In this document: piece after piece, positions 1 to 59,143 of the stretch
How the letters are laid out: every line of letters begins with the position of its first letter
Position numbering within the stretch: position 1 is the stretch's first letter
Source: Kofleriaceae bacterium
GTDB taxonomy: Bacteria; Myxococcota_A; Polyangia; Haliangiales; Haliangiaceae
Reading direction: 5' to 3'
Length of the DNA: 64,000 bases
Assembly: GCA_044230415.1 (NCBI GenBank)
Contig: JBGARE010000001.1
Coordinates: 433,195-497,194, forward strand
The notes under the pieces: generated by a model
The model's input: only the letters and a program-made list of their open reading frames with translations
Told to the model about the DNA's origin: nothing
Database searches by the model: none
Program-made: the position numbers and the translations under genes

Positions 1-355
1 CCGCGAACAGTGACAGTGGCAACTCGAACGTGGCGTAGCCGGTGTTTGTCTCGGGATCGATCAACGCGTACAGCTCGACGTCCGACCATCGTAGCCACGC
101 GCGTTCGGGAATCATGGAGTCACCGACACGAAACCACGCGTGAAGATCGAGGGAGAGCGTGAGCGACACGATGTCGTGACTCGCATCGACGATCGCTGCG
201 AGAAGTCGCTCGCGAAATGCGGTGTAGGCGCCGTCACTCCAGACGATGGTTCGTGGGTCATCATTCGTCAGGGTCGCCTCGTTCACCCGAGTCAGAGGAC
301 TGAAATCCTCGAGCCATGCTTCGACGAACGAGCGCCACCACTGCGTACGCGACAT
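1..355 (-). CDS. Hypothetical protein, partial (runs off the window edge); possible partner/immunity gene of the upstream DUF4157 protein
   Basis: ATG at 355..353 on the minus strand. I checked every + strand triplet in this frame from position 2 to 355 and found no TTA/CTA/TCA, so there is no minus-strand stop. Translation: MSRTQWWRSFVEAWLEDFSPLTRVNEATLTNDDPRTIVWSDGAYTAFRERLLAAIVDASHDIVSLTLSLDLHAWFRVGDSMIPERAWLRWSDVELYALIDPETNTGYATFELPLSLFA..., with GC-rich third positions. It begins about 100 bp after the stop of the 457..4488 gene on the same strand. It is absent from the ORF track only because there is no stop inside the window. Confidence 0.45.
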   Translation of the reverse strand, partial: MSRTQWWRSFVEAWLEDFSPLTRVNEATLTNDDPRTIVWSDGAYTAFRERLLAAIVDASHDIVSLTLSLDLHAWFRVGDSMIPERAWLRWSDVELYALIDPETNTGYATFELPLSLFA

Positions 356-456
356 GCCCGCTGGCTGAACGAGCTCCGTGTGCCATGCCGCTCCATCCTG
401 CTCCCAGCCCCAAGTATCGGTACGCGGTTGGCGCGGCGGTGAATCGTCGTTCGTGC

Positions 457-3400
457 TCACGGGTACACTCGTGTCGTTCCGGTTGCGTCGATGGTCACGG
501 CGCCCCGGTCGACTTTCAACAGAAGGCGCTGTGATTCACCCGCAGCGTTCTTGTCCAGAACTTCGACCCAACCGACATGATCGCTTCGAGCGCCCTTCAA
601 GCTCTGCTTGAGCTGGCCCTGCACCTCGTTCGCGATCTGTTCGTTGCTCCTCGCGATTCGCCCGGTGGCGCTCGCATCGAGTCGAATGTATCCCGGAGCT
701 GTTGTCGCGTCCGCGCGCGCCGAGATCTGCGAGGCAGCCTTGCGAAGGTTGCGTTGGATGGCGTCCTTTCCGATGGTTCCTTCGGCATTCCCGAGGGCCT
801 TTACCTCGACCGGAACCTTCGGCTGACGACCGCCGGTCACGAGGAACTCGGGCGTCTTGACCCCCTGTACTTCGCCGGCTGTCAGGCCATGCAGGGACCG
901 ATCGGATCCCAAGGGCGATCTTCCCTCGAGAACGTCGACAGCGGTGCTTAGCTCGGCATTCGCCTGATCGAGCTCGGCGGTGGCTTTTGCGATCTTCTCC
1001 TTCCCACCTTTCGCTGCGAGCTTCGCGAGCTTTGCCTCCGCTTCCACGACGCTCTCGAACCGGGAGATGAAGTCGCCGCTGACGCGGCCCGCGTACTTGT
1101 CGAAGAACGCCGCCGTTCGCTGCAGCGTCTCTGCACCGACCGCGTGGCTGGTGTTCCCCAACAACTTCCGCATCGCTGCCATCAGCTCGGCGTCCCCGAG
1201 CTTCGCCAGCTTCTGGAACGCGAGCACTGCTTCTTCGCCCATGCGAGTGAGCGCGAGCGCTTCCTCGCCGGCGAGCCCTGCTTCGAGCAGCTTGAGAACA
1301 CGCGGTGCATTCTGGGTTTCGAGCAGGAGCTTCGTGAGGATCGCTTCGTCGGCGAGAGCGCGCATCTTGAGGAGCTGTCCTGGGCGCGCGACCCCGAGGA
1401 GCTCGGCGAGCTTTCCTGCGTTCTTGAATTGCCCCAGGAGCTCGACGAGCTTTTCGGCGGAGGCAGCTCCGTGCCCGGTACCGACGAGCAGATCGAGCAG
1501 GAGGTCTGCATCCTTCACCTCGGAGATCAGCTTGACCAGCGTCTCGCCGTTCTTCGCGTACGCGAGCACCTCGAGGAGCGTGGCGGTATTGCCTCCGAGC
1601 TTCGCGACCAGCGCGTCGGCGAGCTTGAGGTTTCCGCCCATCCGATCGAGGAGCTTCGCCGCGAGGATCGGATCGGCCTTCGCGAGGGCCGCGAGGTTCG
1701 GGAACCGCCAGTCCTTGAGACCCTTGATCGCGGCGGCGCCGGTGAGCACCGTGAACACGCCCGCGAGGACAGCCTCGATGACGAACGAGACCCACGCCAT
1801 CTTCAGCGCGTGCTCCGCCTGCGCGACGGTAATGCCTTGGATGTTTAGCTGCGTGTCGAGGCGCGCGAGGTCGAGGCGGCGCTCGGCTTCACCGATGTGT
1901 TTGGCCGAGCCGTAGAGGCCGATGCCGATATCGATGCCCGCGAGGATCAGGCCGCCGACGCCGGGGACGAGCAGCGCTCCTACGGTCAGCAGTCCTTTGA
2001 GGAACATGCCGACCAGCGACGACGCGATCTGATCGACGATGTGCTCGACGCGCCAGACCGCGATCGCGTAGGCCTGGAATGGATTCTCGCGGACGACGAC
2101 CTGCCGCGTGGCCTGCTGCCACAGCGACGAGTACTCGAATACGCCGATGCCGAGCCGGTGCTTCGCTTCGACGACGACGTCCTCACCGTAGCTGTGCGGC
2201 GAGTAGGTACCGTCGACGATGTTCGACTTCACGCGCGCGAAGGCTTCGATCGCATCGGCGAGCTCGGACTTCTTCTTGCTGCGGCCCGCGGGCGACTCGA
2301 GCTCGTCGGCCTTCGCGCGCATCACCTTCACGGCGTTGCGGAGGTCGGGGAGGTCCTCGAGCGTGACGATGTGTCCGTTGACCGTCGACGATTTGATCTC
2401 GCCGGACTCGATCTGATCGGCGGCGTTCTCGATCAGCCATGCAGCGATTCGATAGCGACCGGCGGTCTCCGGAATCCGCGTCTCGAAGTTGTCGTGGAAG
2501 TCTTTGATCTCGTCGTAGTTCTTGGTGACCCATTCGAGGGCCACCTCCTTCAGCATCGGGACCCACGTGTTGTCGAGGAACCACGCAGCTTCCTCGCCGC
2601 GCGCTTCGACGATGTCGCGGATGTTCTCCCAGCTCAGATCGACGCGCTCGGCGATCTCCTTCTTCGCGGCGTCTCGCTGCGTTTCGAGCTCGGTCTTGAG
2701 AGCGAGGAGCTCCGTGCCGATCGTGAGCAACGCGGTCAAGAAGCCGAGCTGTGGTGGGAGCGTGGCTTTGCCGGAAATCGCGACGGCGTTTGCGACCAGC
2801 GCTTCGTCGACGCGCCCACCGCTGTTCACGGTGTCGAAGATCGTGCGTAGCGCCTGCGCGACGTAGAACGAGCTCTCGTAGAACCCACGCGGATTCGCGA
2901 TCAGCGCAGCGAGCTCGGGCTCCGAGGTCGCCTCGGGGTCATCGATCTTCGCTACGAGATCGCGGTTGCGCCGCTCCGCATCCTTGCCGGCCGTCGCGAG
3001 CTTCTGGAGGATCGCGAACGTCGCCTTCTCGTCGGCGTTCCGCGCGATGTTCCGCATCATGTCGGGGTCCTTGCGGGCCTCCTTCATGTACTCGGCGGAG
3101 ATGTAGTCGAGGATCTGCGCGCGCTTCGAATCGAGATCGAGGTTGTCGATGTAGACCTGGAAATCGAGACGGCTCCTCGTCCAGTCGTCGAGCACCCATC
3201 CCGTCGTCAGCTGTGGACCAGCCCAGCCGATCCACGCGTCGATCTTCTCGTGGCGCTGCTCCGCGGCGCGGTCGACGCCTTTCGGTCGATAGCGTTCGAG
3301 ATCGAAGCTCCTCGGGACAAAGACGAGGTCTGCCGCACTATCGACGTAGTTGCCGAGGAACTTCTCGGATAGGACCTGATTCGTCTCCGTGCCGAAGCTC

Positions 3401-4488
3401 CGGCTCATGACGTAGTCCCAGATCGACACCGCGAGGTCGTCGGGAACCACACCGCCGTCGACCGGAGGCGCGCTCGCGACCTCGTTCTCGAGGAGAAGCA
3501 AGAACGTCTCGACGCGGTCCCGCTCGGCATTCTCGCGCATGGACGTTCCGCCCATCATGAAGACGTCGCTCCGAACCGATGGAAGCGCCGTCTGCCAGTC
3601 GACGGTGCCGGGATCGACCTCGAGGTACTCCTCGAGAGCGACACGATGCTTTTGCTGCCGGAGAAACTCGCTGCGCCAGTCGAGAAGAAACGAGACGGTC
3701 GGGAAGCCAGCTGTCGGCATGATCGACCACACCGGCAGTGCCCTCTCGATCATCGCGGTGACGCCCGGTCCCCCGAGATACGTCGTGGTCTCGAGCAATG
3801 GCCTTCCGCGCGGCGAGAACAGCTCGGTCAGCGCAGTGACGAGCTGCGCCTCGAGCGCGGGATCGGCGTCGAAGCGCGAGAGAGTGTCGTCGTCGACGTG
3901 TAGCGAGAGAAACACCCCGGCGTCGCGAAACGGCACGCCGAGTTGAAACAGCGTGACGCCGTCGTCGTCGGAGCCGCGGATCAGCGGATCCTTCTGGACC
4001 GCTTTGCGCGTCGGGCCGCCGGCGTGTTGATCGAGGAGTGCTTCTGCCGAGCCGCCCGCGACGACCGTGTCCGCGACCGCATCGGCGTGACGTTCGTAGC
4101 GATCACCGCGCTGACCGGCCCGGCTGTCGACGCCGCGGCTCTGTTGCACGACGTGAGCGGCCTCGTGCGCCGCGGTGCGGAGGTCCGGTTGTTCGCCGAA
4201 CGCGACCCGATCACCGACGGTGAATGCGCGTGCACCCATCTGCGTCGCGGCGTCGCCACCCGCGCCACCGACCGACGCTCGCGCATCACCGATGTCGTGA
4301 TGACCGAATGATTCCTGAATGCGATCGCGGTGCGGCAACGGCCCGTGGGCTTGCTCTACGCCGGCGGATGCGCGGACGTAGAGTGGGATGCCGGTCTTCG
4401 CAGGCGGCTTCGCGCGACCGCGCGTTGACGACGAGGGCGCGGCGCCCCTATCCCCCTTCGACGGCTTCTTCGTCGGAACGAACGCCAA
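457..4488 (-). CDS. Large (1343 aa) protein with an N-terminal DUF4157-like zinc-metallopeptidase-type domain (HExxH), a central hydrophobic/helical repeat region and a C-terminal domain of unknown function
   Basis: The N-terminus reads ...GARAFTVGDRVAFGEQPDLRTAAHEAAHVVQQSRG..., which matches the DUF4157 signature including the HEaaH motif. The middle contains a Gly/Ile-rich probable membrane segment (GALLVPGVGGLILAGIDIGIGLYG) and repeated LAKLG/LLEAG helical units. It is a long single ORF with good codon bias. Confidence 0.8.
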   Translation of the reverse strand: MAFVPTKKPSKGDRGAAPSSSTRGRAKPPAKTGIPLYVRASAGVEQAHGPLPHRDRIQESFGHHDIGDARASVGGAGGDAATQMGARAFTVGDRVAFGEQPDLRTAAHEAAHVVQQSRGVDSRAGQRGDRYERHADAVADTVVAGGSAEALLDQHAGGPTRKAVQKDPLIRGSDDDGVTLFQLGVPFRDAGVFLSLHVDDDTLSRFDADPALEAQLVTALTELFSPRGRPLLETTTYLGGPGVTAMIERALPVWSIMPTAGFPTVSFLLDWRSEFLRQQKHRVALEEYLEVDPGTVDWQTALPSVRSDVFMMGGTSMRENAERDRVETFLLLLENEVASAPPVDGGVVPDDLAVSIWDYVMSRSFGTETNQVLSEKFLGNYVDSAADLVFVPRSFDLERYRPKGVDRAAEQRHEKIDAWIGWAGPQLTTGWVLDDWTRSRLDFQVYIDNLDLDSKRAQILDYISAEYMKEARKDPDMMRNIARNADEKATFAILQKLATAGKDAERRNRDLVAKIDDPEATSEPELAALIANPRGFYESSFYVAQALRTIFDTVNSGGRVDEALVANAVAISGKATLPPQLGFLTALLTIGTELLALKTELETQRDAAKKEIAERVDLSWENIRDIVEARGEEAAWFLDNTWVPMLKEVALEWVTKNYDEIKDFHDNFETRIPETAGRYRIAAWLIENAADQIESGEIKSSTVNGHIVTLEDLPDLRNAVKVMRAKADELESPAGRSKKKSELADAIEAFARVKSNIVDGTYSPHSYGEDVVVEAKHRLGIGVFEYSSLWQQATRQVVVRENPFQAYAIAVWRVEHIVDQIASSLVGMFLKGLLTVGALLVPGVGGLILAGIDIGIGLYGSAKHIGEAERRLDLARLDTQLNIQGITVAQAEHALKMAWVSFVIEAVLAGVFTVLTGAAAIKGLKDWRFPNLAALAKADPILAAKLLDRMGGNLKLADALVAKLGGNTATLLEVLAYAKNGETLVKLISEVKDADLLLDLLVGTGHGAASAEKLVELLGQFKNAGKLAELLGVARPGQLLKMRALADEAILTKLLLETQNAPRVLKLLEAGLAGEEALALTRMGEEAVLAFQKLAKLGDAELMAAMRKLLGNTSHAVGAETLQRTAAFFDKYAGRVSGDFISRFESVVEAEAKLAKLAAKGGKEKIAKATAELDQANAELSTAVDVLEGRSPLGSDRSLHGLTAGEVQGVKTPEFLVTGGRQPKVPVEVKALGNAEGTIGKDAIQRNLRKAASQISARADATTAPGYIRLDASATGRIARSNEQIANEVQGQLKQSLKGARSDHVGWVEVLDKNAAGESQRLLLKVDRGAVTIDATGTTRVYP

Positions 4489-4554
4489 CGCCGCAGTCGA
4501 CGACGATCAGCCATCTCGAACAATCGGGAGCGCTGCCGCAAAACGCGGCAGGGA

Positions 4555-18994: not shown

Positions 18995-21900
18995 GTGTAT
19001 GATTCGTCCGTGGCGGTCGCGACCTATCCGGGCACGGTGTCGCCGTTGCGGGGGCTAGATCCTTTCGGGGAGGCCGAACGCGACGTGTGGCACGGTCGCG
19101 AGACCGAGCGCGACGAGATCGCGAAGATGGTCACGGCCGATCAGTTCCGCTCGGGGCTCGTCTATGGGGAACCCGGTGTCGGCAAGACGTCGCTGGTTCG
19201 CGCGGGCCTGATCCCGTACCTGCGCGATCACGGCATCGTCGCGCTCGCGTGTGAAGATCTGACCCAGCCCGCAGCGAGCTTCGCGCAGGGGCTGTCGGCG
19301 TTCGGAATCCAGCCGAACCCGAACGAGCTGCCGGCGCTGTTCGCGCAGCGCGCGGTGACGAACGCCGTCGCGGGGCAACAGTTCGTGTTCGTCGTCGACG
19401 ATATCGATCTGCTATGCCAGGACGAGCGCGCCGTCGGCGAGCTCAGCGATCTCTATCAGCGCGTGGTCTCGCGCGGCGCGGGTCGTGCGCGATTCCTGTT
19501 CGTCTGCGCGAGCGAGCGACAGCACTTGCTCGGTGCGCTCGAGCGGCGGACGGGCTCGCTGTTCCCGCCATCGTCGCGCTACGAGCTGCAGCGCATCTCG
19601 GTCAACGCCGCGAGCGGCATCTTCGATCGCATGCTGTCGCTGTCGGGCGTCGCGGCGGATCCGGAGCTCGCCGACGCGGTCGTGCAAGGCATCTCGCACG
19701 GCCAGCCGCTCCTCGCTGCGGATCTGCAGATCGCCGGCATGGCGATGCGCGATCTGCGGATCTCGTCGAAGACCGCGCTCGAAAAAGCGGGTGGACCCGG
19801 CGAGCTCGAGTCCGAGTGGCTGCACGAAGCCTGTCGCGCGACCGGAAACGAACGCTCGGGCCTTCGCTTGTGCGCGGAGATCGCCTCGACGACGGCACCA
19901 CGCACCGCGGAGTCGATCGTTCGCAAGGTCAACCTCGATCCCGCGTACACGAGCTCCGCGCTCGTCGTGCTCGAGCAGCGCGGCGTGATCAGCCGCGCGG
20001 ACGCGACGGGAAACACGTGGATGCTGCGCCACGAGGTGCTGACGCCACGCGTGCGCGAGCTGACCGCGCCGGCGCGTGCGGCTGCGCGGCGCGGGTTCGA
20101 TCTGCTCGGCAGCAAGACGCAGGGCAACCAGCGCCTCAAGCTGCGCGAGCTGCGCGCGCTGCGCACCGAGGGCATCGCGGCGGTCACGCCCGAGGAGCAA
20201 GCGGTCGTCGATCGCAGCAAGCGCTATTACATGATGCTCGCGGGCGCGATCGCGGCGGCGCCGATCGTGATCCTGATCTTCATCTGGATCGCGATGCGCG
20301 GGAAGGTCTACTTCGACCTCGAGCCGCACGCCGGTGGTGATCGCATCGTCGTGCGCTACGGACGCGCCGGACTGTCGAGCTTCCACTGGTTGCCGGGCGG
20401 ATTCGGCGACGAGATCGCCGACACGGGGCTCACGCGCCCGATGTCCGCGGCCGAGGCGTGGAAGAAGATCGATGGCCACGACATCGGCGGCAGCGACGAC
20501 GATTGGGACACGCAGCTGCGCTCGTTGATGGCGCCGCAACTCGGTGGGCTCGTCGATTACGCGACCACGGGCAACGAGAAGGCGCTCGATGCGCTCGCGA
20601 AGGCGGCAAAGGATCCCGAGGATCTCGCCGAGCTGCTCACGTCGTTGCGGCCGATCGCGCGCGGCACCGCGAGCGAGGTCGCGCTCGTCGAGAGCGCGCT
20701 CAAGACGCAGTCACCGGCGGTGCAGCGTGCAGCGGTCGCCGTCGCCGGTGCGGCGGCGGGACGCGGCACGGACGCGTATCAAGACAAGCTCAGCGCGGCG
20801 CTGACGTCCTCGGATCCCGAGCTGCGGCGCATCGCCTTTGGTGCGGTGCGCGGACTCGGCGAGCGCGGTGCGGCGCTGTTCGCGAAGGCGCTCGAATCGG
20901 GACCGGATCCCGAGATCAAGCGCGAGCTGATGGTCGAGGTCTCGACGGCGTCGGTCCCCACCGCCGACGACGGCGAGGGCCCATCGGTCGCGACCATGAT
21001 CGGCGTACTGGGTGAACCCGACGCGACGCCCGCGATGCGCGATCGCGCGAAGACGCAGATCAAGGGTGCGCTCGCGAAGAATGCGGATGCAGTCGCCGTC
21101 GAGCTCGTGAAGCTCGTCGCATCGGACAAAGCGCCGGTCGAAGCCCGCGTGTACGCGATCGGCCTGTTGCGCGAGATGGATCCGCTGCCCAAGTCGGCGG
21201 ACCTCGTCGAGAGCGCGCGCACCGCGTTCCAGTCGCGCTCGCCCGCGGTTCGCGCAGCCGCATTGCCGCTCTACGCGAAGGCGGATCCCGAACGCGCCGG
21301 TGGTGACCTCTCGAACATGCTCGAGGACAAGAAGCTCGAGAAGCCGCTGCGCATCGCCGCCGCGCTCGCATGGGGCGAGGTCGCGGCCACGAACAAGATG
21401 GCGGCGCAGAACGCGCTCGATCGCATGCTTACCGACGAGGACTCGGACGTGCGGGCCGCCGCGGCGGAGGCCGCTGGCAAGGCGGGGCGCGCGTACCAAG
21501 AGAAGCTCGTGAAGATGGCGAAGGGCGAGAACTACAACGTCCGTATCGGCGCCGCGCGTGGGTTGGCCGTCAGCGCCGAGAGTGGTGGCAACCCGAGCGT
21601 CGCCGTCGGCGGCATCTTCCAGCTCTGGCGCGAGAAGGGTCGCCCGCGCCGCGAGGCGGCGAAGGTCTACGCGCAGCTCGCGAAGAAGAAGCCCGCGATC
21701 GTGCTCGAGTACCTGTCCGCGGCCGCGCGCACGCCCGAGGACGAGGGCCTGCATCCGATCGGTGTCGAGGGTCTGTGCAACGCGGCCCTCGCCGGAAGCG
21801 CGGGTGCGCGCGCCCAGCTCGCGAAGTCCACCGACGATCCATCCGTCGAGGTACGCAAGCTCGTCATGGCGTGCGTCGCGGACGGTCCCGATCCCGCGAA

Positions 21901-22924
21901 GAACGGCGTGGTGATCGCGGCGAAGCTCGTCGGGGATTCGAGCGCCGAGATCCGCGCCGATGCCGCGCGCGTCCTCGCGCTGTCCGCGGCGAAGGGCAAC
22001 AAGGCCGTGGGGGAGTCGCTCGTGAAGATGCTCGACGATTCGGACCGCGATGTTCGCGTGATCGCGATCCGCGCCGTCGGTGGCCTCGGCGCCGACGCCC
22101 CGAAGACCGCGCAGACCACGATGTCCAAGATGTTCGAGCGCGGCGACGAAGCCGAGAAGCTCGCGCTCCTCCGCGCGGCTCGCCAGATCGGCGCATCGGA
22201 TCTCATCGGCCTCGCGGTCGCCGACTCGTCGCCGATCGTACGCGTCGAAGCCGTCGATGCCGCGCTGTCCTCGGGCCAGCGCGCGAAAGAGACGCTCTCC
22301 GCCGCGCTCGCCGATCCCGATCCGCAGGTGCGCAAGGCCGCCCTCGAGCGCCTCGCCGCGCAGAAGGACAAGCTCGAGCCCGCGGTCATCGAGCGCACCC
22401 TCGCACTCGCCGTGCGCGATCCGAACCCGGAGCTCAGCCAGCTCGCGCTGACCACCGTCGCCCGCGTCGCGCCGAAGGAAGCCGTCGCCGCGCGCCTCAC
22501 GCGCTCGCTCGGCTCTCGCGCGGAACGCGAGCGTGCCCAAGCCGCCGCAGCAGCGATCGGTCTCGTCGAGCGCGACGCCGCGTTGACCTCGCAGCTCCTC
22601 TCGCCGCTGCTGTCGGACCCGTCGCACGACGTTCGCGTCGCCATGCTGCCCGCGCTCGCGGCTGCCTACGCGAAGACCAACGAGCCCGAGAAGCTCGCCG
22701 GTCTGCTCCGTGATTCCGAGACCAACGCGATGCGCCGCATCGTCGTCGCGGCTGCGTTCATCACGCTCGCGAAGACAGATGCCGGCCGCGCCGCCACGGA
22801 GTCGTCGCTCGGCAAGGTCGCGAAGAACGGACCGCCGATGGCGCGTCAGATCGCGAAGCTTGTCGGTGGCCTGATCGGCGGCAAAGCCGACGGGATGGCG
22901 TTCCTTCAGGAACTGATCCCGTAG
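18995..22924 (+). CDS. STAND-like P-loop NTPase with a transmembrane segment and a long C-terminal HEAT-repeat (PBS-lyase-type) array, 1309 aa
   Basis: Walker [23 protein letters not shown] lies near the N-terminus and a Walker B-like [11 protein letters not shown] follows. A hydrophobic helix ([24 protein letters not shown]) sits around residue 410. After it come at least 12 HEAT-like repeats with [12 protein letters not shown] spacing, for example [49 protein letters not shown] and [15 protein letters not shown]. The start codon is GTG. The gene is divergent from the DUF4139 operon, 70 bp away. Confidence 0.75.
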
Positions 22925-25680: not shown

Positions 25681-28600
25681 TCAGCCAAACCGACCGCTCG
25701 GAAAGAACACTTCGGTCGCTCTCTCTGGGGCAACCATCCCCGCCGTGCGCGCGCGCTCGTCACCCGCTGCGATCAGCTGTGCGCCCTCGGTGCCTCCGAG
25801 CTCCTCGCCGAGTCTGCGCTCGAGGCTGAACATGGTCACCGCGATGCCACGCGCGTTCGACTCGGAGATCGCCGCGCGCAACGCCCTGACCCGTGCATCG
25901 CGATCGTCGCCGAGCATCGCGATCGCGGCGCGCAGCGACGTGGCGGCGGTGAGCGCGCCGGGGAAGTCGAGCTTCGCGAGCTTGTCCGCCTGTGCTGACG
26001 CCGCGCGAAGATGCGCGAGCGCCTCGCTCGGCGCGCCGCGATGGCGTGCGGCGATCGCGAGTCCCGCGAGATACGTGCCGTACGCGTGCAGCCATTCGAG
26101 GCGCAGGATCGGGATGCGACCGACGAGCGAGCGCTGCATGCGCCGGCACTCCTCGCCCAGCTCGGACTCGAGCGTCGCGAATGCATTCGTGTAGAGCGCG
26201 ATGCGAATGCGACTCCACAGTCCCCACGCACGTTGGTTGCCGAACGAGTCCTTGCCCGGCAGCCAGGACGCGAGCGCATCGAGGACATCGACGCGCGCCG
26301 TGTCCGCACGATCCGCGATCACGTGGCGCATCGCGAACCGCACGCGAAGCGTGACGTCCTGGAACAGATCGCCTTTGCGCTTCGCGAGCTGGATCTGCGC
26401 GGTCGCCCGCTCGGCCATCTCGTTGTAGCGACCGAGCATCTGGAGCGACGACAGCGCGAAGTGCAGCGCGATGTCCGTCTCCCATCCCGGACCGCGCCCC
26501 GCGCGATACCACTCGTGCTCGAGGCGCGTTGCACTCTCGAGCGCACGCACGAAGTCGTTGTCGAGGACAAACACCTTCGCCGTCTGCGCGAGCTCCGCGT
26601 ACCACGCGGACACGGGCATCGCCGCGGCGTCGGCGGCGCGTCGCGTGGCGGCCATCAAGCGATCCGCGCGATCGTGGCGACCGAGGACCGCAGCGCCGAT
26701 CGTCGCCGAGGCCAGCGCGCGCGCGATCTGCTGTGGCGACCCGTACTCGAGTGCGAGGCGCGCCGCGCGGCCCGAGAAGTACGCACCGAGGAGCGTGTCG
26801 ACCATGCCGAGGCCCGCGCCGATCGACCAGCAGATGTCGGCATGGATGGACCGCGGATCGATCTCGGTGCGCGGCTTCCAATCGAGCGCGCGCCGCATGC
26901 GCAGCTGGTTCCACACGATGCCGGCGATCGTGCGCACGCGCGTCGTCGGTAGCGACATGTCCGCGCGCGCGAGGACGGCCCGTGTGGTCTCGAGTCCGCG
27001 ATCGAGCCGCCCCGCCATCAGGAACCGCTCGGCCGCACGCCGGAGGAGATCGAGCTGCTGCGGAGAATCGGCGGACTCGAGGTTCGCGGCTTCGAGGTAG
27101 CACTCGGCAGCGTCCGCCGTACGGCCGTCGTTCGCGAGTGCATCTGCGAGCGCGACGAGCAGCGGGCCGCGACGCTCGGGCTGCGGCGTGGCCGCGAGCG
27201 CGCGCTGGTACAGCTCGGCGGCGCGGCCGAACGCGAATGCGTCGAGCGCGGCCTTCGCGGCGGCGACAACGTAGTGCGCCGCGCGCTTGAGATCGCCGGC
27301 GGACTCGAACCGCTCGAGCAGCGCCGCCGCGGACGCGCCCATCTCCTCGAGCCCCCGCGCGATCGCGCCGTGCAGCCGACGCTGATCGGCATCGGCCACG
27401 TGCGCGAGGATCGCCTGCCGGATCCGATCGTGAAACGGCTCGATCGCATCCTGTGGTCGCGAACCATGGACACGCACGAGCTGCTCGTCGACGAGAGCCG
27501 TCACGTGGCGTTCCGCGGCATCGACGATTCCCGCCGCAGCGCATGCGACGTGGCGTGGAACCGGTGAGCCCGCGACCGCGACCGCCGCGAGGAGCTCGCG
27601 CGTGGCTGGATCGAGCGCGAGCGTGCGCTCCCAGATCACGTCCTCGAGGCGCGATGCTTTCAACGCCGTCCTGCGATGCCGCACGAGCTCGCGCAGGAAC
27701 AGCGGGTGGCCGCGGCTCTCGACGACGATCTGCGCGGTCTCCACGTCCGGATCCGATGCGACGAGCCGCACGAGCTGCGCGGCCGCGGCGGCGCTCAGTC
27801 CGCTGAGAGCGATCGTCCGCGTGTGCGGTGCAGCGGCGATCCGCTCCGCGATCTGTGTTCCTTCGCGCGGGCGCTTCGTCGCGATGATGCAGATCGGCGC
27901 GCCGCTACCGGCGAGCTCCTCGAGGAGCAACGTGCTGTCCGCGTCGGCCCACTGCACGTCGTCGATCGCGATCACCACGGGGCGGCGCTCGCCGATCCGC
28001 ACGAACAGGTGTCGTAGCGCTGCGAACGCGCGTTCGCGAACATCCGATCCGAAGGCGAGGCCCTCGTCGTCCTCGCGATCGGCGAGCGCGGGCACGGCAC
28101 GCAGCGCGGTGAACACGGCGAGCAAGTCGCTGACCTGGCCCGGCACGACGCGCTCGACGGAGGCCGGTGTACGCGACATCAGATAGCGCGCGAGATCATC
28201 GACCACACCGTCGACGGCGTTGAACGGCACGCGTTCGCGCTCGTGACAGCGGCCGCGCAGCACGACGAGCCGCGGCTGCGCTGCCGACGCTTGCTCGAGA
28301 AAGCGATCGACGAGCACGCTCTTGCCGACACCCGACTCTCCCTCGACGAACACGCACGCGAGCTGTGTCCGGCTCGTGTCGAGGGCGGCAGCGAGCACCG
28401 CGAGCTCGTCTTCGCGGCCCACGAACGGCTGTCGCGGGATCTCGAGCGCGATCTCGTCCGCACCGGCGAGCATCGCGAGGATCTGCTGCTCGGTCGGACG
28501 CTGTCTCGGATCGGCGCTCAAGAGGTTCGTGCACAGCCATTCGAGATCCGCCGGGATCCCGGCGACGAGCGTGCTGGGCGAGGGAGCGGCGAGATGCTGC

Positions 28601-29400
28601 TTGAGCACCAGGAGCTCGTTGCCCGTGACGTCTCCAAACGGCGTGCGTCCGGTGAGCGCTTGGAACAACAGCACGCCGACGGCGTACCAATCGGCCGCGG
28701 GGGTGATCGCATCACCGCGCGCCTGCTCGGGGGCCATATACGTCACGGTGCCGATCACCGCTTCGTCGCGCGCAGCGGTCGCGTGCAGCTCGGCGACGGC
28801 GCCGAAATCGAGCAGCACCGCACGACCGCTCGCTTCGACGAGGATGTTCGATGGTTTCACGTCGCGATGGACGATGCCCGCCGCGTGCAGCGCCGAGAGT
28901 CCGCGCGCGAGACCGAGGAGCGCGACGCGCAGGCGATCGAGCTCGCACCGCGGAGCGGGCGCGCGGTCGGCGGCGTACACCGGTGGGGTCACCACCGTCG
29001 AGTCGGCGGGTCCGTCGAGCTTCGACGTCTCCTCCGATCGAGACTCGACGACGCGGCTCGACGTGGCGACGCTCTGGGGCGAGCTCGAGCGCACCCAATC
29101 GACGAGGTTGTCACCGTGGAGGCGATCCATGGTGAAGAACCACGTGCCCGACGACTCGAACAGCTCGCCGAGCTGCACGAGGTTGGGATGCTTCACGTCG
29201 CGCAACATGCGGAACTCGGACTTGAAGCGCAGCACTGCATCGGGTGAGAGGCCACGCAGTGTCTTGAGCGCGACCTCGACGCCCCGCTCCTTGTCGTACG
29301 CGCGATAGACGACGCCCATTCCGCCGCGACCGAGGACATCGAGGACCTCGAATCGGCCGTCGATCATCGATGGGAGTCCGCTCGGATTCCCCTCATCCAC
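25681..29400 (-). CDS. Ser/Thr protein kinase fused to an AAA/P-loop ATPase and TPR-like repeats (STAND-type signalling kinase)
   Basis: The N-terminal Hanks kinase shows [29 protein letters not shown] and APE. A P-loop ([11 protein letters not shown]) with Walker B ([12 protein letters not shown]) follows, and the C-terminal half is helical and TPR-like. This architecture is typical of myxobacteria. Confidence 0.9.
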
Positions 29401-35956: not shown

Positions 35957-36068
35957 GCTCTCACTGTAGCGCCGTGTCTCGATGGCACGAGTCGAGTGCG
36001 CCGCTGCCTGTCATCGCGGAGTTAGCGGGCCATCCCGCGTGGCGCGGCGCTTGGAATGCCGAGCTGCT

Positions 36069-38264
36069 ATGCGTGTTCGCCTCGCGGCTGTGATGACGGT
36101 GTCTCTGTTGGCCGGGTGGCTCGTGTCGGTCGCGAGCGCGGAGACGTCGAGCGAGCTCCCGGTCCCCGGCGAGGACGACAAGCTCTACGCGTGCAAGAAG
36201 AGCACGGGCTCGATCGAGGTCACGTTCAAGCCGGAGACCGAGGTCAAAGATCTCGTCACGTGGGTGATGGGCTTCACGTGCAAGAACTTCATCTACGCGC
36301 CGCACCTCGTGGCGCAGGGACGCAAGCTGACGATCGTCGCACCGACGAAGATGACCGCGGGCGAGGCGTATCGGTTGTTCCTCGCGTCGCTGTCGACGCT
36401 CGGCCTCACGGTCGTGCCGCAGGGAAACATCGTGAAGATCGTGGAGTCCAACACCGGCAAGCATCTCCCGGTGCCGCTCTACAAGAACGGCGCGCCCGAC
36501 AACACCGACCAGCTCGTGCGCTACGTGATGCGCCCGCAGTTCATGCAGGCCGAGGCGCTCGCGAAGGCGATCGGCAGCGTGAAGAGCGATCCGGGCGAGA
36601 TCACCGTCGCGGGCTCGCTGCTGCTGATCGTCGACTACGGCAGTCACGTGCGCGACATGTTGTCGATCGCGAAGCTCGTCGACGTGCCGAGTGGCAGTGA
36701 AGGCGTCTACACGATCCCGCTCCAGCACGCGGATGCGACGAAGCTGTTGCCGAAGCTGACGGGCATCCTCGGCATGGATGGCAGTGGTGCGCCCGCGGCC
36801 GGCAAAGCCGCGGCACCGACCGACATGGCGCAGGGCGTCGCCCCGTCGAAGATCCTCGTCGACGATCGGACGAACACGCTCGTGGTCGCGGCGAGCGTGG
36901 CCGCGTACGAACGCGTGAAGGCGCTGGTCGAGCGGCTCGATATTCCGCTCGATATCGAGGGCGGCAGCTCGATCCACGTGTATCCGCTCGGCAGCGCGAT
37001 CGCCGAGGAGGTCGCGAAGACGCTCAACGAAGCGATCCAGAAGACGCAAGCGCCCGCGGGCACGTCGAGTCCCGGGCGTCCGGGTGCGCCGCTGCCGGCA
37101 CCGGCCGCGGGCCTCGGTGAAGGGCTCGACGGTCGCGCGCAGGTCGTCGCCGACAAGCCGACGAACAAGCTGATCGTCGTGTCGAGCGGCCGCGACTTCC
37201 TCGCGATCAAGGAGGTCATCAAGGAGCTCGATCAGCCTCGACGCCAGGTCTACATCGAGGCGTTGATCCTCGAGGTCACGCTCGGAAGCGAGTCCGAGTT
37301 CGGGATCAGCGCGCACGGCGGCAAGACCCTCGGCGGACAGAACGGGACGACGCTCGGGCTCGGCGGCATCCAGCTCGGCAATGGCGTCACTTCTCTCGAT
37401 CCGACCTCGCTCGCGAGTGCGACGGGGTTGATCGGCGGGGTCATCGGAAAGGCACTCCCCGGATCCGAGGATCTGTTCGGTCAGAGCATTCCGTCGTTCG
37501 GGATCCTGCTGCAGGCGATCGCGAATCGTTCGAACACCAATGTTCTTTCGGCCCCCAGTATCATCGCGCTGGACAACGAGGAGGCGAAGTACAAGGTCGG
37601 CGTCAACATTCCCTACTCGAAGGGCGTCATTCCGACGACGACGCTGACCCAGAACGCGCCGATCTCGACGAACGTCGATCGCAAGGATCTCGTGCTCGAG
37701 CTCAAGATCAAGCCGCACATCTCGACGGGCGACCAGGTGCTCCTCGAGATCTCGCACGAAGCGAACGACTACGGCGAGGATCTCGCGCTCGGTCCGAGCT
37801 GGGCGACGCGCGGCTTCGAGACGCGCGCCGTCGTGAAGGATCAACAGACGTTCGTGCTCGGCGGGTTGATGCAGGAGAAGGACATCCAGCAAGCACGGCA
37901 AATCCCGCTCCTCGGTGACATCCCGATCCTCGGCAACCTGTTCAAGTACTCGAAGAAGATCAAGAAGAAGACCAACCTGATCATCATGCTCACGCCGTAC
38001 ATCATCAAAGACGACCTCGATCTCGAGGCGATCCGCGAGCGAAAGATGCGCGAGCACACCGAGTACACGCAGTCGAAGCGTACGTTCGAACAGCTGCGGT
38101 TCCAGCCGCGCATCGACTATCGCCGCAAGCGCGGCCTCGTCGAGGACATCAATCGCACCGTGATGCAGGTCGAGACAGACCTCGCGACGCTCGAAGCGCT
38201 GAAGCGTCCCGAGGCGATGAAGTCAGGGCCCGTGCAAACCGCGCCGGCGAGTCAGCCCGAGTAG
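36069..38264 (+). CDS. gspD: Secretin, GspD family (type II secretion / T2SS-like outer-membrane channel)
   Basis: The signal peptide is MRVRLAAVMTVSLLAGWLVSVASA. N0/N1-type domains are present (KDLVTWVMGFTCKNFIYAP..., ILVDDRTNTLVVAAS..., LIVVSSGRDFLAIKEVIKELD). The C-terminal secretin core reads VLGGLMQEKD...IPLLGDIPILGNLFKYSKKIKKKTNLIIMLTPYIIKD. Confidence 0.9.
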   Translation: MRVRLAAVMTVSLLAGWLVSVASAETSSELPVPGEDDKLYACKKSTGSIEVTFKPETEVKDLVTWVMGFTCKNFIYAPHLVAQGRKLTIVAPTKMTAGEAYRLFLASLSTLGLTVVPQGNIVKIVESNTGKHLPVPLYKNGAPDNTDQLVRYVMRPQFMQAEALAKAIGSVKSDPGEITVAGSLLLIVDYGSHVRDMLSIAKLVDVPSGSEGVYTIPLQHADATKLLPKLTGILGMDGSGAPAAGKAAAPTDMAQGVAPSKILVDDRTNTLVVAASVAAYERVKALVERLDIPLDIEGGSSIHVYPLGSAIAEEVAKTLNEAIQKTQAPAGTSSPGRPGAPLPAPAAGLGEGLDGRAQVVADKPTNKLIVVSSGRDFLAIKEVIKELDQPRRQVYIEALILEVTLGSESEFGISAHGGKTLGGQNGTTLGLGGIQLGNGVTSLDPTSLASATGLIGGVIGKALPGSEDLFGQSIPSFGILLQAIANRSNTNVLSAPSIIALDNEEAKYKVGVNIPYSKGVIPTTTLTQNAPISTNVDRKDLVLELKIKPHISTGDQVLLEISHEANDYGEDLALGPSWATRGFETRAVVKDQQTFVLGGLMQEKDIQQARQIPLLGDIPILGNLFKYSKKIKKKTNLIIMLTPYIIKDDLDLEAIRERKMREHTEYTQSKRTFEQLRFQPRIDYRRKRGLVEDINRTVMQVETDLATLEALKRPEAMKSGPVQTAPASQPE

Positions 38265-54781: not shown

Positions 54782-57700
54782 CTAGACCTCCAGGAGCTCG
54801 AGCAGATCGTGGTCGTAGCGGGTGTGATCGGCGGCGGTCTTGCCTTCGTTGTCGCGCAGGCCACGGTTCGCCCCGGCGGCGAGCAAGAGCTCGATCGCCT
54901 TCTTCTCGCGGAACCGCGCGGCGTGGATCAGCGCGGTGGATCCGTCCTCGTCCTGAAGATCGAGGTTCGCGCCTTCTTCGATCAGCAGCTCGACGCAGGC
55001 CGGGTTGTCGACGGCGCACATCAGCGCGGTGCGTCCGGCCGAGTCCTTCGCGTCGACGTGAGCGCCGCGCTTCAGCGCGAGCACGATGTGCGCCTTGTTG
55101 CCCGTCCACGCGGCGTTGATGGCGCACTCCGCGACGGACGCGCCGCGATCGAGGAACAGCTCGAACACCTTCTTCGACTTCGCGGCGGCTGCGTTCTGCA
55201 CCGGTGTCGATCCGGTGGAGTCCTTCTCTTCGAGCTCGCACACGTCGAGGAACTTCTCGACGAGCGCCATCTTGCCGGAGCTCGCACTCTCGGCGAGGCA
55301 GCCGGCGACGGCCGCCTTTCGCGCGAGGAAGAAGTCGACGATGTCCTCGTGACCGCGGCGTGCCGCGAAGTGGATCGCGGTCGCCTTCTTCTCCGTGGTC
55401 GCGTGGATGTCCGCGCCGTTGTCGACGAGCCACGTCACGAGCGACAGTGCATCGTCGCTGTCTTCGACGAGAGCGGCGACCATGAGCGGCGTCTTGCCGT
55501 CCTCGCTCGCTGCGTTGACGCTCGCACCGAGCTCGACGAGCAGCTTCGCGACGTCCTTGTCCGGCGTCTCGAGTGCGCGGCACAACGCGGTCTTGCCGTC
55601 GTCGCTCCGGGCATCGAGGTTGTCGCCGTTCGCGAGGCACAGCGCGGCGATCCGCTTTCGCTCCGCAGCCTTCTTCGGCAGCGCGTCGCGTTCGATCATC
55701 GCGGCGATGCACCCGTCGAGCTTCGCGCCCGCGGCGACGAGCTTGTCGAGGAGCGCGAACTGCTGCTCTCGGGCTGCGATCTGCGCGACGGTGCGATAGC
55801 TACGCGCGTTCGGATCGGCGCCCGCGGCGAGCAAGCGATCGACAATGGTCCAGTAGCTGTAGCCTGCGGCGCGCAGGATCGGCGGCTCGGCATCGGCGGA
55901 CTCCGCGAGGCTCGGATTCGCGCCTTGTGCGAGGGCGAGGTCGAGCGTGGCGAACTGATCGTCGCTGCCGGTCGCCGCGCTGGCGAGCGCCGCTTGCGGA
56001 TCGAGCAGCGTGATCGTGCGGCCCTCGCCGACCCAGGTCTCGATTCGCTCGCGTATCGAGTAGCTCGTGCCGTCGACGGGCGCGCCTTTCGCGAGCAGCT
56101 CCTCGACGAGGCCGGGAAGATCCTCGGCGTAGTCCACCGCGCGTGCCACGAGCGATGCGCCGGGCTTTCCGGTCACCTTCGTTCCGCGATCGAGCAGCAA
56201 GCGCACGAGCGCGGCGTTGCGTGACGACAACGCCGATTCGACGATCAGCGACTCGCCGTGGAGCTCGTTGGGGTCGAAGCCGGCATCGAGGAGCGCGGTC
56301 ACGATCTCGATGTCCTCGCGCCACACCGCGCGCTGGAGCGTGCCGTTCGCGCGCGGCTTCGCGCCGGCGGCGATCAGCGCCTGGACCGCGGCGAGCGTGC
56401 CCGATTCCGCGGCGCGGTACAGCGGCGTGTAGCCGTACTCGTTCAGCACGCGATCGACCTCCGCACCCGCGGCGACGAGCGCCGCGATCGACGCCGGCTT
56501 GCCCGCAGAGGCGGCGAACTCGAGCGGCTCTTTGTAACTGGGCAACGGCTTCGTGAACCCGTGCACCGGCGCGAGACGAGCGATCGTCTCGGTGTCCTCG
56601 TCCTCGATCGCGCGCTGCAGTGCGACCGCCGGATCGACATCCGCGGAGCGCTTCCGCATCAGCGCGACGACGTCGCCGCGGCGTGCTTCCTCGGCGAGCG
56701 CGAACGCGGTGAATCCCGTGCGATCGGCGAGGAACGGCGCTGCACCGCGATCGAGCAACAGCTCGACGATCGCGAGGTGGCCCATGTCCGCGGCTTCCAT
56801 CAGCGCGGTCCAGCCATCGTTGTCGGCGGCGTCGATGTCAGCACCCTTGTCGAGCAACGCGTGGACGATCGCGAGGCGGCCGTACTCCGCTGCTTCGTGC
56901 AGCGCGCGCCGTCTGTCGTCGTTCGCGACGTTTACATTGACCGGGCGCTCCAGCATCGCGAGGACCTCGGCATCCGTGCCGCGTCCCGCGAGCGCGATCA
57001 GCTCGACGAGCTGCAGCGTCGCGCCGCGTGCCTCGAGGAGCGCGGCGACGTCGCGGTGCTTGTTGTTGGTCGCGATGCGATGCGGGACGTTGCCATCCTT
57101 GTCGGCGAGGTTCGGATCCGCGCCGTGATCGAGCAGCACGCGCACGTTGTCGAGGTGCCCTCGATCCGATGCGCGATGCAGCGGCATCCAGCCGTACTCA
57201 CCGGGTGCGTTCGCATCGGGTGCGATCTCGAGCGCTCGCGTCATGCGCTCCGCGTTGTTGCTGTTCTGCGCGACGCCCATGACGATGCCGCTCGTCGTCG
57301 GATCGCCGAAGCCACGGTCCGCGAGTAGCTCGACGACCTCGATGTGACCGCCCGCGCCCGCACGGCGGATGGCGGTGTAGTCGTCGACCTCGTAGCCTTC
57401 GCGGGGGCCGGGCTCGGTCGCGCCGCGGTCGAGGAGCAGCTCTACCACCTCGCGGTGACCGCCGCGCGCCGCTTTGCGCAGCGCCGTGTCCTGATCGTAG
57501 CTGTCGTCGACCCAGTTCACGTCGGCGCCGCGGTCGAGGAGCAGCTCGACGATCTCGCGGTTGCCTTTCTCGGCAGCGGTGATCAGCGGCGGCTTGCGCG
57601 ACTTCGCGTTCATCGCGCCGCGATCGAGGAACAAGCGCACGAGCTCCACGCTCTCGCGCTCGATCGCGCGCTCGAGCGGCGAGTCGCTGTACGAGCGCGA

Positions 57701-58792
57701 ATCGACGGACAGCCGCGCGCCCGCCGCGAGCAAGCGTTTGACTACCTCGACGTGGCCGCGATTCGCCGCGGCGCCGAGCGCAGTCGTGTCGATGATGTTG
57801 CCGAGGTGAATGTCCGCACCGCGCTCGATCAACAGATCGACGACATCCGTCCAGCCATGCTCGGCGGCTTCGATCAGCGCCGTGTCGCGATTGCCTTCGT
57901 GACGCGCGTCGATATTGGCGCCGCGATCGAGCAGGAACGTCGCGATCTCGAGGAGGGCCGCGGGCCTGTCGTAGTTGTTCGCGACAAACGCCATCGCCGC
58001 GTCGAGATCTGCGCCGGCATCCGCGAGGAGCCGCACGATGTCGAGGTGGCCTTCGCGCGCTGCATGCGCGATCGCGGTGCGCCCTTCTCTGTCCGCGAGA
58101 TCCAGCGGGCTCGCCGACGCGGTCTTCGACTTCTTCGGCTTCGCTTTGGACGTCGACTTCGCGGCGGGCTTTGCCTTCGCGGGAACATCGAGCTGCTCGA
58201 CCAACCACGCGACGAGAGCGCGATGATTCCCCGCCGCGGCCAGCATCAGCGCGGACGTGCCTTGCTCGTCGACCACCGCCAGATCGTCGCCGGCCTTCAG
58301 CGCGCGCTTCGCCATCTCGAGATCGCCGGCCGCGACGGCACCGAGCAGCCAGCCGCGGACCGCTGCCTTCTTCTTCACGAGCCAGTCGACGATGTCGCCG
58401 CGCTTCGCCCGCGCCGCGTTGCCGAGGCCGCTCCAGCCGCTCTCGCGATCGTCGATCGATGCACCGTTCTCGACGAGCAGCTCGAGGAGCTCGATCGAGA
58501 CCGTCGCGCACGCGCTCGCGAACACTCCCTCGCGAGCGGCATCGCCCGGACGCTGCCCGAGGATCCACCGCGCGACCTTCTCGGCCTTGTCACCCAGCGC
58601 GCTGCCGAGGAGGTACTCGTCGACCGCTTCGCCGGCCGCGACGATCTCCTGAACGATCGCGAGGTCATCCCGCGCGATCGCTCGATACATCGCGCTCGAG
58701 CGGTCCGACTCGGTGACCGTGGCGATCAGCTTCCGGACCGTGGCGACATCGCCGCCATCGGCCGCGGCTACCCATTCCTCCTGGCTCATCAT
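54782..58792 (-). CDS. Giant ankyrin-repeat protein (about 1335 aa, at least 30 ankyrin repeats)
   Basis: The ankyrin consensus recurs continuously, with G-TPLH-AA--GH--iV-LLL--GAdvn units such as GRTAIAHAAREGHLDIVRLLADAGADLDAA and GWTALMEAADMGHLAIVELLLDRGAAP. The start was chosen at MMSQEEWVAAADGG at 58792. The track ORF runs to 59122 through non-repeat, Arg-rich sequence. Confidence 0.85.
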   Translation of the reverse strand: MMSQEEWVAAADGGDVATVRKLIATVTESDRSSAMYRAIARDDLAIVQEIVAAGEAVDEYLLGSALGDKAEKVARWILGQRPGDAAREGVFASACATVSIELLELLVENGASIDDRESGWSGLGNAARAKRGDIVDWLVKKKAAVRGWLLGAVAAGDLEMAKRALKAGDDLAVVDEQGTSALMLAAAGNHRALVAWLVEQLDVPAKAKPAAKSTSKAKPKKSKTASASPLDLADREGRTAIAHAAREGHLDIVRLLADAGADLDAAMAFVANNYDRPAALLEIATFLLDRGANIDARHEGNRDTALIEAAEHGWTDVVDLLIERGADIHLGNIIDTTALGAAANRGHVEVVKRLLAAGARLSVDSRSYSDSPLERAIERESVELVRLFLDRGAMNAKSRKPPLITAAEKGNREIVELLLDRGADVNWVDDSYDQDTALRKAARGGHREVVELLLDRGATEPGPREGYEVDDYTAIRRAGAGGHIEVVELLADRGFGDPTTSGIVMGVAQNSNNAERMTRALEIAPDANAPGEYGWMPLHRASDRGHLDNVRVLLDHGADPNLADKDGNVPHRIATNNKHRDVAALLEARGATLQLVELIALAGRGTDAEVLAMLERPVNVNVANDDRRRALHEAAEYGRLAIVHALLDKGADIDAADNDGWTALMEAADMGHLAIVELLLDRGAAPFLADRTGFTAFALAEEARRGDVVALMRKRSADVDPAVALQRAIEDEDTETIARLAPVHGFTKPLPSYKEPLEFAASAGKPASIAALVAAGAEVDRVLNEYGYTPLYRAAESGTLAAVQALIAAGAKPRANGTLQRAVWREDIEIVTALLDAGFDPNELHGESLIVESALSSRNAALVRLLLDRGTKVTGKPGASLVARAVDYAEDLPGLVEELLAKGAPVDGTSYSIRERIETWVGEGRTITLLDPQAALASAATGSDDQFATLDLALAQGANPSLAESADAEPPILRAAGYSYWTIVDRLLAAGADPNARSYRTVAQIAAREQQFALLDKLVAAGAKLDGCIAAMIERDALPKKAAERKRIAALCLANGDNLDARSDDGKTALCRALETPDKDVAKLLVELGASVNAASEDGKTPLMVAALVEDSDDALSLVTWLVDNGADIHATTEKKATAIHFAARRGHEDIVDFFLARKAAVAGCLAESASSGKMALVEKFLDVCELEEKDSTGSTPVQNAAAAKSKKVFELFLDRGASVAECAINAAWTGNKAHIVLALKRGAHVDAKDSAGRTALMCAVDNPACVELLIEEGANLDLQDEDGSTALIHAARFREKKAIELLLAAGANRGLRDNEGKTAADHTRYDHDLLELLEV

Positions 58793-58828
58793 CTCCCTTT
58801 CGGACGTAGCTCCCCGTACGATAGCCGC

Positions 58829-59143
58829 ATGAGCGAGGCGGCAAAGAAGTACAGGTCGGCCGTGGTGGAGCGAGTTCAGAGCGGTGATGGCCATGCACGC
58901 GCGGCGGATCGACGCGCCGCGTTCGCGAACGTCGACGTCCCCGCGGGAGCACGCGCGCTGATCGACAAGGTGGCGAAGACCGCGTGGAAGGTGACCGACG
59001 AGGACGTCGCCGCCGCGAAGGCCGCGGGAGTCACCGAGGACCAGGTGTTCGAGCTCGCGGTGTGCGCCGCGATCGGACAGGCTTCGCGCCAGTTCGATTC
59101 GGCCATGGCCGCACTCGACCAAGCTGCAAAGGAGACCCCGTGA
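58829..59143 (+). CDS. Small CMD (carboxymuconolactone decarboxylase/AhpD-like) helical-domain protein, 104 aa
   Basis: MSEAAKKYRS...ALIDKVAKTAWKVTDEDVAAAKAAGVTEDQVFELAVCAAIGQASRQFDSAMAAL resembles the C-terminal helical half of CMD-family proteins. Its stop overlaps the next gene's GTG start as GTGA. The upstream part of track ORF 57344..59143 is antisense to the ankyrin gene and was discarded. Confidence 0.5.
   Translation: MSEAAKKYRSAVVERVQSGDGHARAADRRAAFANVDVPAGARALIDKVAKTAWKVTDEDVAAAKAAGVTEDQVFELAVCAAIGQASRQFDSAMAALDQAAKETP

Follow-up and report, generated by a model that had tools for sequence, protein, structure and literature searches.

Among the closest described counterparts of the locus reported here are the eCIS-associated toxins (EATs; Geller 2021, Danov 2024), including Cgo1 and Cgo2 of AlgoCIS (Xu 2022). 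DUF4157 sits N-terminally in eCIS toxins, where linkers often exceed 1000 aa (PMC8213781). Cgo1 and Cgo2 fill the tube lumen (PMC8894135), and a recent preprint reports that loading relies on the disordered N-terminus rather than on DUF4157 (bioRxiv 10.64898/2026.05.27.728243). Further points of comparison are offered by the BaCT/BaCTic and PoNe/PoNi pairs, of which BaCT is known behind several N-terminal delivery domains, DUF4157 among them (PMC7073777), by the CdiA-CT toxins 1026b (B. pseudomallei, PDB 4g6v) and EC869 (E. coli, PDB 4g6u), and by Tme of Streptomyces davawensis (PMC11126660).

The window, by which we mean the whole 64-kb stretch of DNA analysed, encodes at one end a large protein built like an EAT: after an N-terminus that may be disordered come a DUF4157 domain with its HExxH motif, a linker of great length and a C-terminal effector that varies. 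The genes of its relatives, moreover, neighbour those for the AAA ATPase and baseplate in eCIS loci. The window toxin differs in having no eCIS gene in the window or the next 10 kb and, unlike many EATs, it has a clear dedicated partner gene. Resemblances to BaCT/BaCTic and PoNe/PoNi include a C-terminal PD-(D/E)xK-type domain with an invariant ExK and a cognate immunity gene (putative here) directly downstream; the use of multiple delivery scaffolds is common to BaCT and the window domain. BaCT, however, is almost restricted to Bacteroidetes, whereas the window family occurs on Terriglobia, Longimicrobiales and Pseudonocardia contigs as well as in Kofleriaceae, BaCT and PoNe being compared here by description only. 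The CdiA-CT domains 1026b and EC869 are only 13-16% identical to the window domain and, unlike CdiA, the window toxin has neither an FHA/TPS delivery region (in a Pfam scan of the whole protein) nor a VENN motif, and the immunity proteins are unrelated. Tme is similar in its N-terminal DUF4157, predicted membrane helices, long helical region and C-terminal nuclease (predicted in our case), but that nuclease is EndA-like (PMC11126660) rather than of PD-(D/E)xK type. The available part of the same report mentions no immunity partner for Tme, while the window toxin has a putative one. We consider it probable that three genes, for a nuclease-type effector and two tandem putative immunity proteins, make up a polymorphic toxin module at the locus. 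The toxin is of a known modular kind, but its C-terminal domain and the accompanying partner family have no entry in the libraries searched.

The toxin gene (457..4488, on the minus strand, as are all window features given below) is an uninterrupted ORF which encodes 1343 aa, begins at a TTG and ends in a stop codon at 457-459. More than 20 public contigs, from different samples, carry an identical gene and protein. Gene callers differ on its start, proposing either 1343 aa (e.g. P0227, P0229) or 1293 aa, with L51 being the start used in P0001. Since the motif PLYVR (aa 35-39) is conserved in the relatives P0002 and P0003, translation begins upstream of L51 and the 1343-aa form is the better one. 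Scans for promoters and terminators around the toxin-partner module found none, and NCBIfam and PHROGs searches returned no match for the toxin.

The N-terminal 51 aa (4336..4488) are basic (pI 11.1), consist to 57% of Pro, Gly, Ser, Ala and Thr and, by analogy with the N-terminal domains of Cgo1 and Cgo2 (bioRxiv 10.64898/2026.05.27.728243), form a candidate disordered loading signal. There follows a domain (aa 52-119; 4132..4335) which the original prediction had assigned to DUF4157 on the strength of AHEAAHVVQQ (aa 107-116) and its context. This assignment holds, as Pfam PF13699 (DUF4157, renamed eCIS_core) matches at 46.1 bits (E = 5.6e-12) against a gathering cutoff of 22 bits, and is the sole Pfam domain in a scan of the whole toxin. 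The HExxH motif spans aa 108-112 (4153-4167), and nine full-length relatives all retain its residues H108, E109 and H112. Downstream of this domain, a conserved scaffold or linker (aa 120-1060; 1309..4131) is common to P0002-P0009, P0144 and genes on Terriglobia and Pseudonocardia contigs, at 30-51% identity, with the closest relatives in Kofleriaceae (Myxococcota). A hydrophobic and helical region had been anticipated after DUF4157; alignment and sequence resolve it into two strongly hydrophobic, highly conserved segments, aa 821-859 (1912..2028), which contains an invariant VPGVGG, and aa 894-924 (1717..1809), with a helical Leu-rich stretch after them.

The remainder of the protein (aa ~1061-1343; 460..1308), delimited by similarity boundaries, is an exchangeable cassette comprising a helical pre-toxin part and a nuclease-like domain. 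Most proteins with unrelated scaffolds become similar to the query from aa 1062-1128 onwards, and three of them from aa 897-976. The resulting cassette of about 220-280 aa agrees with the C-terminal domain of roughly 250 aa first proposed. Exchange is apparent at two levels. Firstly, while 761 database proteins match the toxin, only some nine align across most of its length; the others cover 8-18% of the query, corresponding to the N-terminal domain. The expectation that DUF4157 heads diverse proteins with variable C-termini was thus well founded, as more than 700 proteins share the N-terminal domain only and their C-termini range from lipase to Fic. Among the precomputed Pfam domains of these matches are lipase, M23 peptidase, HNH-type nucleases (AHH, GH-E, LHH, WHH), colicin DNase, colicin D, Fic and calpain. 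Secondly, exchange occurs behind the toxin's own scaffold: P0002-P0006 have the same scaffold and the same C-terminus as the toxin, whereas P0007, P0008 and P0009 have the same scaffold and a different C-terminus, P0007 departing after query aa 1055. A frameshifted copy of the domain, considered as an explanation for the C-terminus of P0008, was ruled out by tblastn, which found the domain in no frame of the corresponding locus (L007).

The converse, reuse of the C-terminal domain on other scaffolds, required an exhaustive profile search to become visible; a word-indexed search with the domain alone recovered two fragments only. Searching 1.84 billion representatives, we obtained 75 clusters, 53 of them below 1e-10, and in most of the 75 the domain ends within four residues of the protein C-terminus. 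The host proteins are 190 to 3306 aa in length and feature three N-terminal kinds: DUF4157, SH3_3+DUF6861 (with or without LysM), and repeat-rich regions with no Pfam match. Members occur on contigs labelled Terriglobia, Longimicrobiales and Pseudonocardia, and also on cyanobacteria-like repeat proteins. A constant N-terminus with varying C-termini and a C-terminal domain reused on unrelated scaffolds, both criteria for polymorphic toxins (Zhang et al. 2012), are therefore found here.

The genomic setting of the window copy differs from that of several relatives. No sheath, tube, baseplate, spike, Afp15-like or T6SS genes were detected in the 64-kb window, upstream of the toxin, or in the 10 kb downstream. 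The upstream portion encodes a TPR protein, a STAND NTPase, PEP carboxylase, a Ser/Thr kinase, MMPL, radical-SAM enzymes, a secretin, a cyclase, an oxidoreductase, an ankyrin protein and others, and the downstream portion encodes hydrolase, PAS, SpoIIE and TPR genes. The proximity by which an EAT is recognised, at most about 10 genes from an eCIS operon, is accordingly not found at the window locus, while relatives in L006, L088, L090 and the P0006 contig do show it. An AAA ATPase gene precedes the orthologue in L006, L088 and the P0006 contig, with baseplate or fibre-like genes, or additional DUF4157 genes, close by. In L090, a 1532-aa protein bearing the domain is encoded, together with its partner, inside a full contractile-injection locus (T4_baseplate, Pvc16_N, AAA+WHD, CIS_tube, Phage_base_V, gp25, Baseplate_J), a short way upstream of the genes for tube, spike and baseplate. 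A check for eCIS or T6SS loci had been proposed; eCIS genes flank relatives of the toxin, but none of either type occurs in the window or the next 10 kb. Delivery by T6SS or CDI was considered and rejected, as the toxin contains no PAAR, VgrG, Rhs or TPS domains and the window no such genes. Because the window copy has no eCIS neighbours, its delivery would depend on an eCIS located in another part of the genome, a reading to which we give about even confidence.

Of the alternatives, the one which fares best is that the window copy is an orphan, lacking an injection system to deliver it and either kept as a remnant in the form of a selfish toxin-immunity addiction pair or exported by other means. 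We consider this unlikely, if not negligibly so. The lack of eCIS genes within ~74 kb is compatible with it, as are the lower GC content of the module (64.6%, against 67.9% in the remaining window) and the lack of eCIS neighbours at two further loci, L005 and L092. Against it, the toxin and both partner ORFs are intact and identical across many contigs from different samples, and the N-terminal region and DUF4157 are still in place. Moreover, approximately 12% of known eCIS toxins are located far from the operon (PMC11297309), and the ~74 kb concerned are one part of the genome.

An ORF downstream of the toxin had originally been placed about 100 bp away, starting from an ATG at 355, in the position of an immunity or partner gene. 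The position proved apt, but the start required correction. Partner gene 1 (1..460), a putative immunity gene, has its first 153 of 208 codons inside the window, and its frame is open from a GTG at 458-460 which overlaps the toxin's TGA stop by 4 nt (GTGA). Homologues share without exception the residues ahead of Met36 (D15, T16, W17, G23, A24, W26), confirming the upstream start. The GTG at 460 is called in four contigs, of which the one checked (L001) matches 4.6 kb of the window at 100% identity and reaches past window position 1. Extension along this contig recovered the full ORF of 208 aa and, directly after it, partner gene 2 (L001:14502-15155), a 217-aa tandem paralogue beyond the window with 41% identity to the first and a 4-nt ATGA overlap. 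Neither partner protein matched any entry in Pfam, NCBIfam or PHROGs.

The partner family comprises 30 clusters of about 215 aa, and its profile matches the ORF directly after every gene examined that encodes the C-terminal domain. On the toxin's own scaffold this applies to the window genome, with its two copies, as well as to L005, L006, L088 (Terriglobia) and L089 (Pseudonocardia); on other scaffolds, it applies to L090 (Longimicrobiales; a different DUF4157 type), L092 (SH3_3+DUF6861) and L091 (a repeat protein), the last with a second, fragmented partner copy. None of 80 DUF4157 loci without the domain contained a match to the profile; a search with the full-length toxin alignment, which mostly recovered loci similar in DUF4157 alone, supplied these negative controls. 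The pairing of partner and domain is thus strict, and it extends to L007 and L008, which combine the toxin's scaffold with another C-terminus and have no partner; in L008 its place is taken by an unrelated acidic ORF of 162 aa, 4 nt past the stop. The partners are acidic (pI 4.5-5.0), against a pI of 9.2-9.3 for the basic C-terminal domain. That the partner co-varies with the warhead, overlaps the toxin's stop with its start, is opposite in charge and is duplicated in tandem is a combination which most likely marks a cognate immunity protein, a role which, as read from sequence, we treat as putative. A downstream gene co-varying with the toxin domain, a further polymorphic-toxin criterion, is likewise found.

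The same features bear on whether the ~215-aa partner might instead be a chaperone, adaptor or activating cofactor which folds, stabilises or loads the C-terminal domain. Such a role has precedent, in that eCIS toxins are often without obvious immunity genes and proteins encoded beside DUF4157 have been proposed as chaperones (PMC8213781; PMC11297309); the L090 partner, furthermore, lies inside a structural operon. One would, however, expect a loading adaptor to go with the N-terminus or with the machine, whereas the partner follows the C-terminal domain over three unrelated scaffolds and is gone when that domain is replaced. Acidity against a basic domain, tandem duplication and start/stop overlap are also typical of immunity genes. 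We therefore judge a chaperone-like role improbable and favour immunity.

The C-terminal domain itself (aa 1125-1343; 460..1116) was modelled with AlphaFold2. A first model, built from seven sequences (pLDDT 60), was dropped for one built from a 44-sequence alignment, with a pLDDT of 93.9 and a pTM of 0.91. This model comprises two long helices followed by a beta-beta-beta-alpha-beta-alpha-beta-beta-beta core; its alpha-beta-beta-beta-alpha-beta arrangement is the core fold of the PD-(D/E)xK superfamily. A putative catalytic motif (799..852), derived from the alignment and the model, is formed by P1213-E1214, where beta2 starts, and E1228-x-K1230, within beta3, which in the model is the canonical PD-(D/E)xK arrangement. 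P1213, E1228 and K1230 (domain P89, E104 and K106) are invariant in the 44-sequence alignment, and the sequences inspected have either E or D at residue 1214 (domain position 90). E1179 and D1185 (domain E55 and D61), Q1254, R1269, D1271 and E1309 are conserved in more than 90% of the same alignment; an acidic residue is conserved in alpha1 of the domain, as is a Gln in the helix after the motif strands. The toxin-like fold which the original prediction had proposed to look for is thus predicted by the model, as a nuclease fold with its motif.

Searches by similarity were less uniform in outcome. In structure comparison the fold resembles CdiA-CT toxins, NucC and restriction enzymes, with CdiA-CT 1026b aligning over nearly its full length, but the top matches are to the acetyl-CoA carboxylase central domain. 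This domain ranked alone in a Foldseek search against the PDB, in which nucleases scored weakly, and all structural matches are low in sequence identity (5-16%). A profile search of PDB sequences with the domain yielded nothing meaningful, and no curated PD-(D/E)xK family or nuclease HMM exceeded its threshold. It could be argued from these results that the domain serves in binding or structure, or is an enzyme with a different substrate, and has no more than a common alpha/beta topology in common with nucleases. We find this hard to reconcile with the invariant P-[E/D] and E-x-K falling exactly at beta2 and beta3, the conserved alpha1 acidic residue and Gln, and the near-complete alignment with CdiA-CT 1026b. 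The sub-threshold Pfam matches among members of the domain family (SduA_C at 1e-3, TnsA-like, VRR_NUC, NERD, NOV_C and RE_NgoBV) also recur among PD-(D/E)xK families, and the extreme C-terminal position and dedicated partner fit a toxin. A non-nuclease is accordingly assigned a low probability, and a PD-(D/E)xK-type nuclease is the reading we retain.

Finally, that the toxin serves a contractile particle mainly as a tape-measure-like structural protein or cargo, as with Tme, and is a nuclease only secondarily, is suggested by its Tme-like layout (PMC11126660) and by the baseplate-adjacent position of the L090 protein, but it is improbable given that this position belongs to a protein with the same C-terminal domain on a different scaffold and not to the window copy, which lies outside any CIS operon, that the gene follows an AAA ATPase in L006, L088 and the P0006 contig, the usual position of a toxin, and that the toxin has no PHROGs tape-measure match at E ≤ 0.01, in a search less sensitive than the profile-HMM remote-homology analysis of the Tme authors.

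On the interpretation we prefer, gene 1 would encode a modular effector in which a basic low-complexity N-terminus, the DUF4157 HExxH domain, a helical scaffold of ~900 aa and a pre-toxin region precede a PD-(D/E)xK-type C-terminal domain. This domain may cleave nucleic acid through E/D...P[E/D]...ExK and a divalent metal, DNA being a somewhat more likely substrate than tRNA. Genes 2 and 3, apparently translationally coupled tandem paralogues encoding acidic proteins of ~215 aa, would most likely act as cognate immunity by binding and neutralising the basic nuclease domain in the producer cell. Loading via the N-terminus would bring the toxin into a contractile injection particle, itself encoded in another part of the genome, for injection into competing cells, with the hydrophobic segments perhaps helping membrane passage.

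More tentatively, and with somewhat less than even confidence, we propose that the cassette and its ~215-aa partner constitute a previously undescribed PD-(D/E)xK toxin-immunity family swapped among at least three delivery scaffolds in several phyla, that in at least one lineage (Longimicrobiales, L090) this family lies, together with its immunity gene, a little upstream of eCIS tube, spike and baseplate genes, and that orphan copies are loaded in trans or delivered by another route. The locus leaves the current understanding of these systems unchanged, and provides a clean natural case of warhead swapping, in which one scaffold is found with differing C-termini and downstream genes. Most DUF4157 proteins are still without an annotated C-terminal function (PMC11297309); if the present prediction holds, one more defined toxin domain enters the catalogue of eCIS effectors, along with its cognate immunity family. 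Engineered injection particles could also make use of such a compact nuclease-immunity pair, whose N-terminus is of known loading type. If the broader proposal is true, the large lumen cargo of some contractile particles would be a polymorphic toxin with a swappable warhead.

In the toxin relative P0007, encoded at locus L008, the scaffold of the query toxin is kept and its C-terminus is replaced by a region containing 'GSRVTG...DLDI', which may be nucleotidyltransferase-like. An ORF for an acidic 162-aa protein (L008:13562-14050) starts 4 nt past the stop of the P0007 gene and is unrelated to the partner, the putative immunity protein encoded directly downstream of the query toxin. The P0007 C-terminus and this ORF look like an alternative warhead-immunity pair. 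Among further relatives, P0005 carries a tandem pair of DUF4157 HExxH units, and in P0127 the C-terminal domain of the query type and a partner homologue are fused through frameshift read-through.

The query-type C-terminal domain also occurs, with its partner, on a 1532-aa DUF4157 protein in a Longimicrobiales contractile injection system (eCIS) locus (L090:5406-10651). Protein and partner are flanked there by an AAA ATPase on one side and by genes for tube, spike and baseplate on the other, a placement that is tape-measure-like.

The partner gene is itself duplicated: just past window position 1, on a contig that is 100% identical to the window over 4.6 kb and extends beyond it, a second paralogue of 217 aa (L001:14502-15155) overlaps the first partner gene by ATGA and is 41% identical to it at the protein level. 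A second partner copy, in fragmented form, is likewise found at L091, where the C-terminal domain sits on a repeat-protein scaffold.

Ahead of the toxin start, the inverted repeat CTGCCGC-GTTTT-GCGGCAG (about 4529-4547, minus strand) directly follows the stop codon of the 254/288-aa gene upstream; it was not scored by the terminator scan. Approximately 30 kb from the toxin gene, the window encodes a secretin of the GspD type, composed of N0, Secretin_N and Secretin domains (35982-38264, plus strand), for which we found no evidence of a connection to the toxin. Also encoded are two large proteins of signalling type, a 1309-aa nSTAND1 NTPase that carries HEAT repeats (18995-22924, plus strand) and a Ser/Thr kinase-AAA_16 fusion (1239 aa; 25681-29400, minus strand), as well as a protein consisting almost entirely of ankyrin repeats (54782-59122, minus strand; Ank_2, E = 3.9e-130), which at 1446 aa is unusually large among bacterial ankyrin proteins.

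The GC content of the toxin module (window 1-4488) is 64.6%, versus 67.9% in window 4489-64000, and scaffold relatives of approximately 50% identity occur on contigs labelled Kofleriaceae, Terriglobia and Pseudonocardia. The lower GC content and the spread of the relatives both suggest horizontal transfer.
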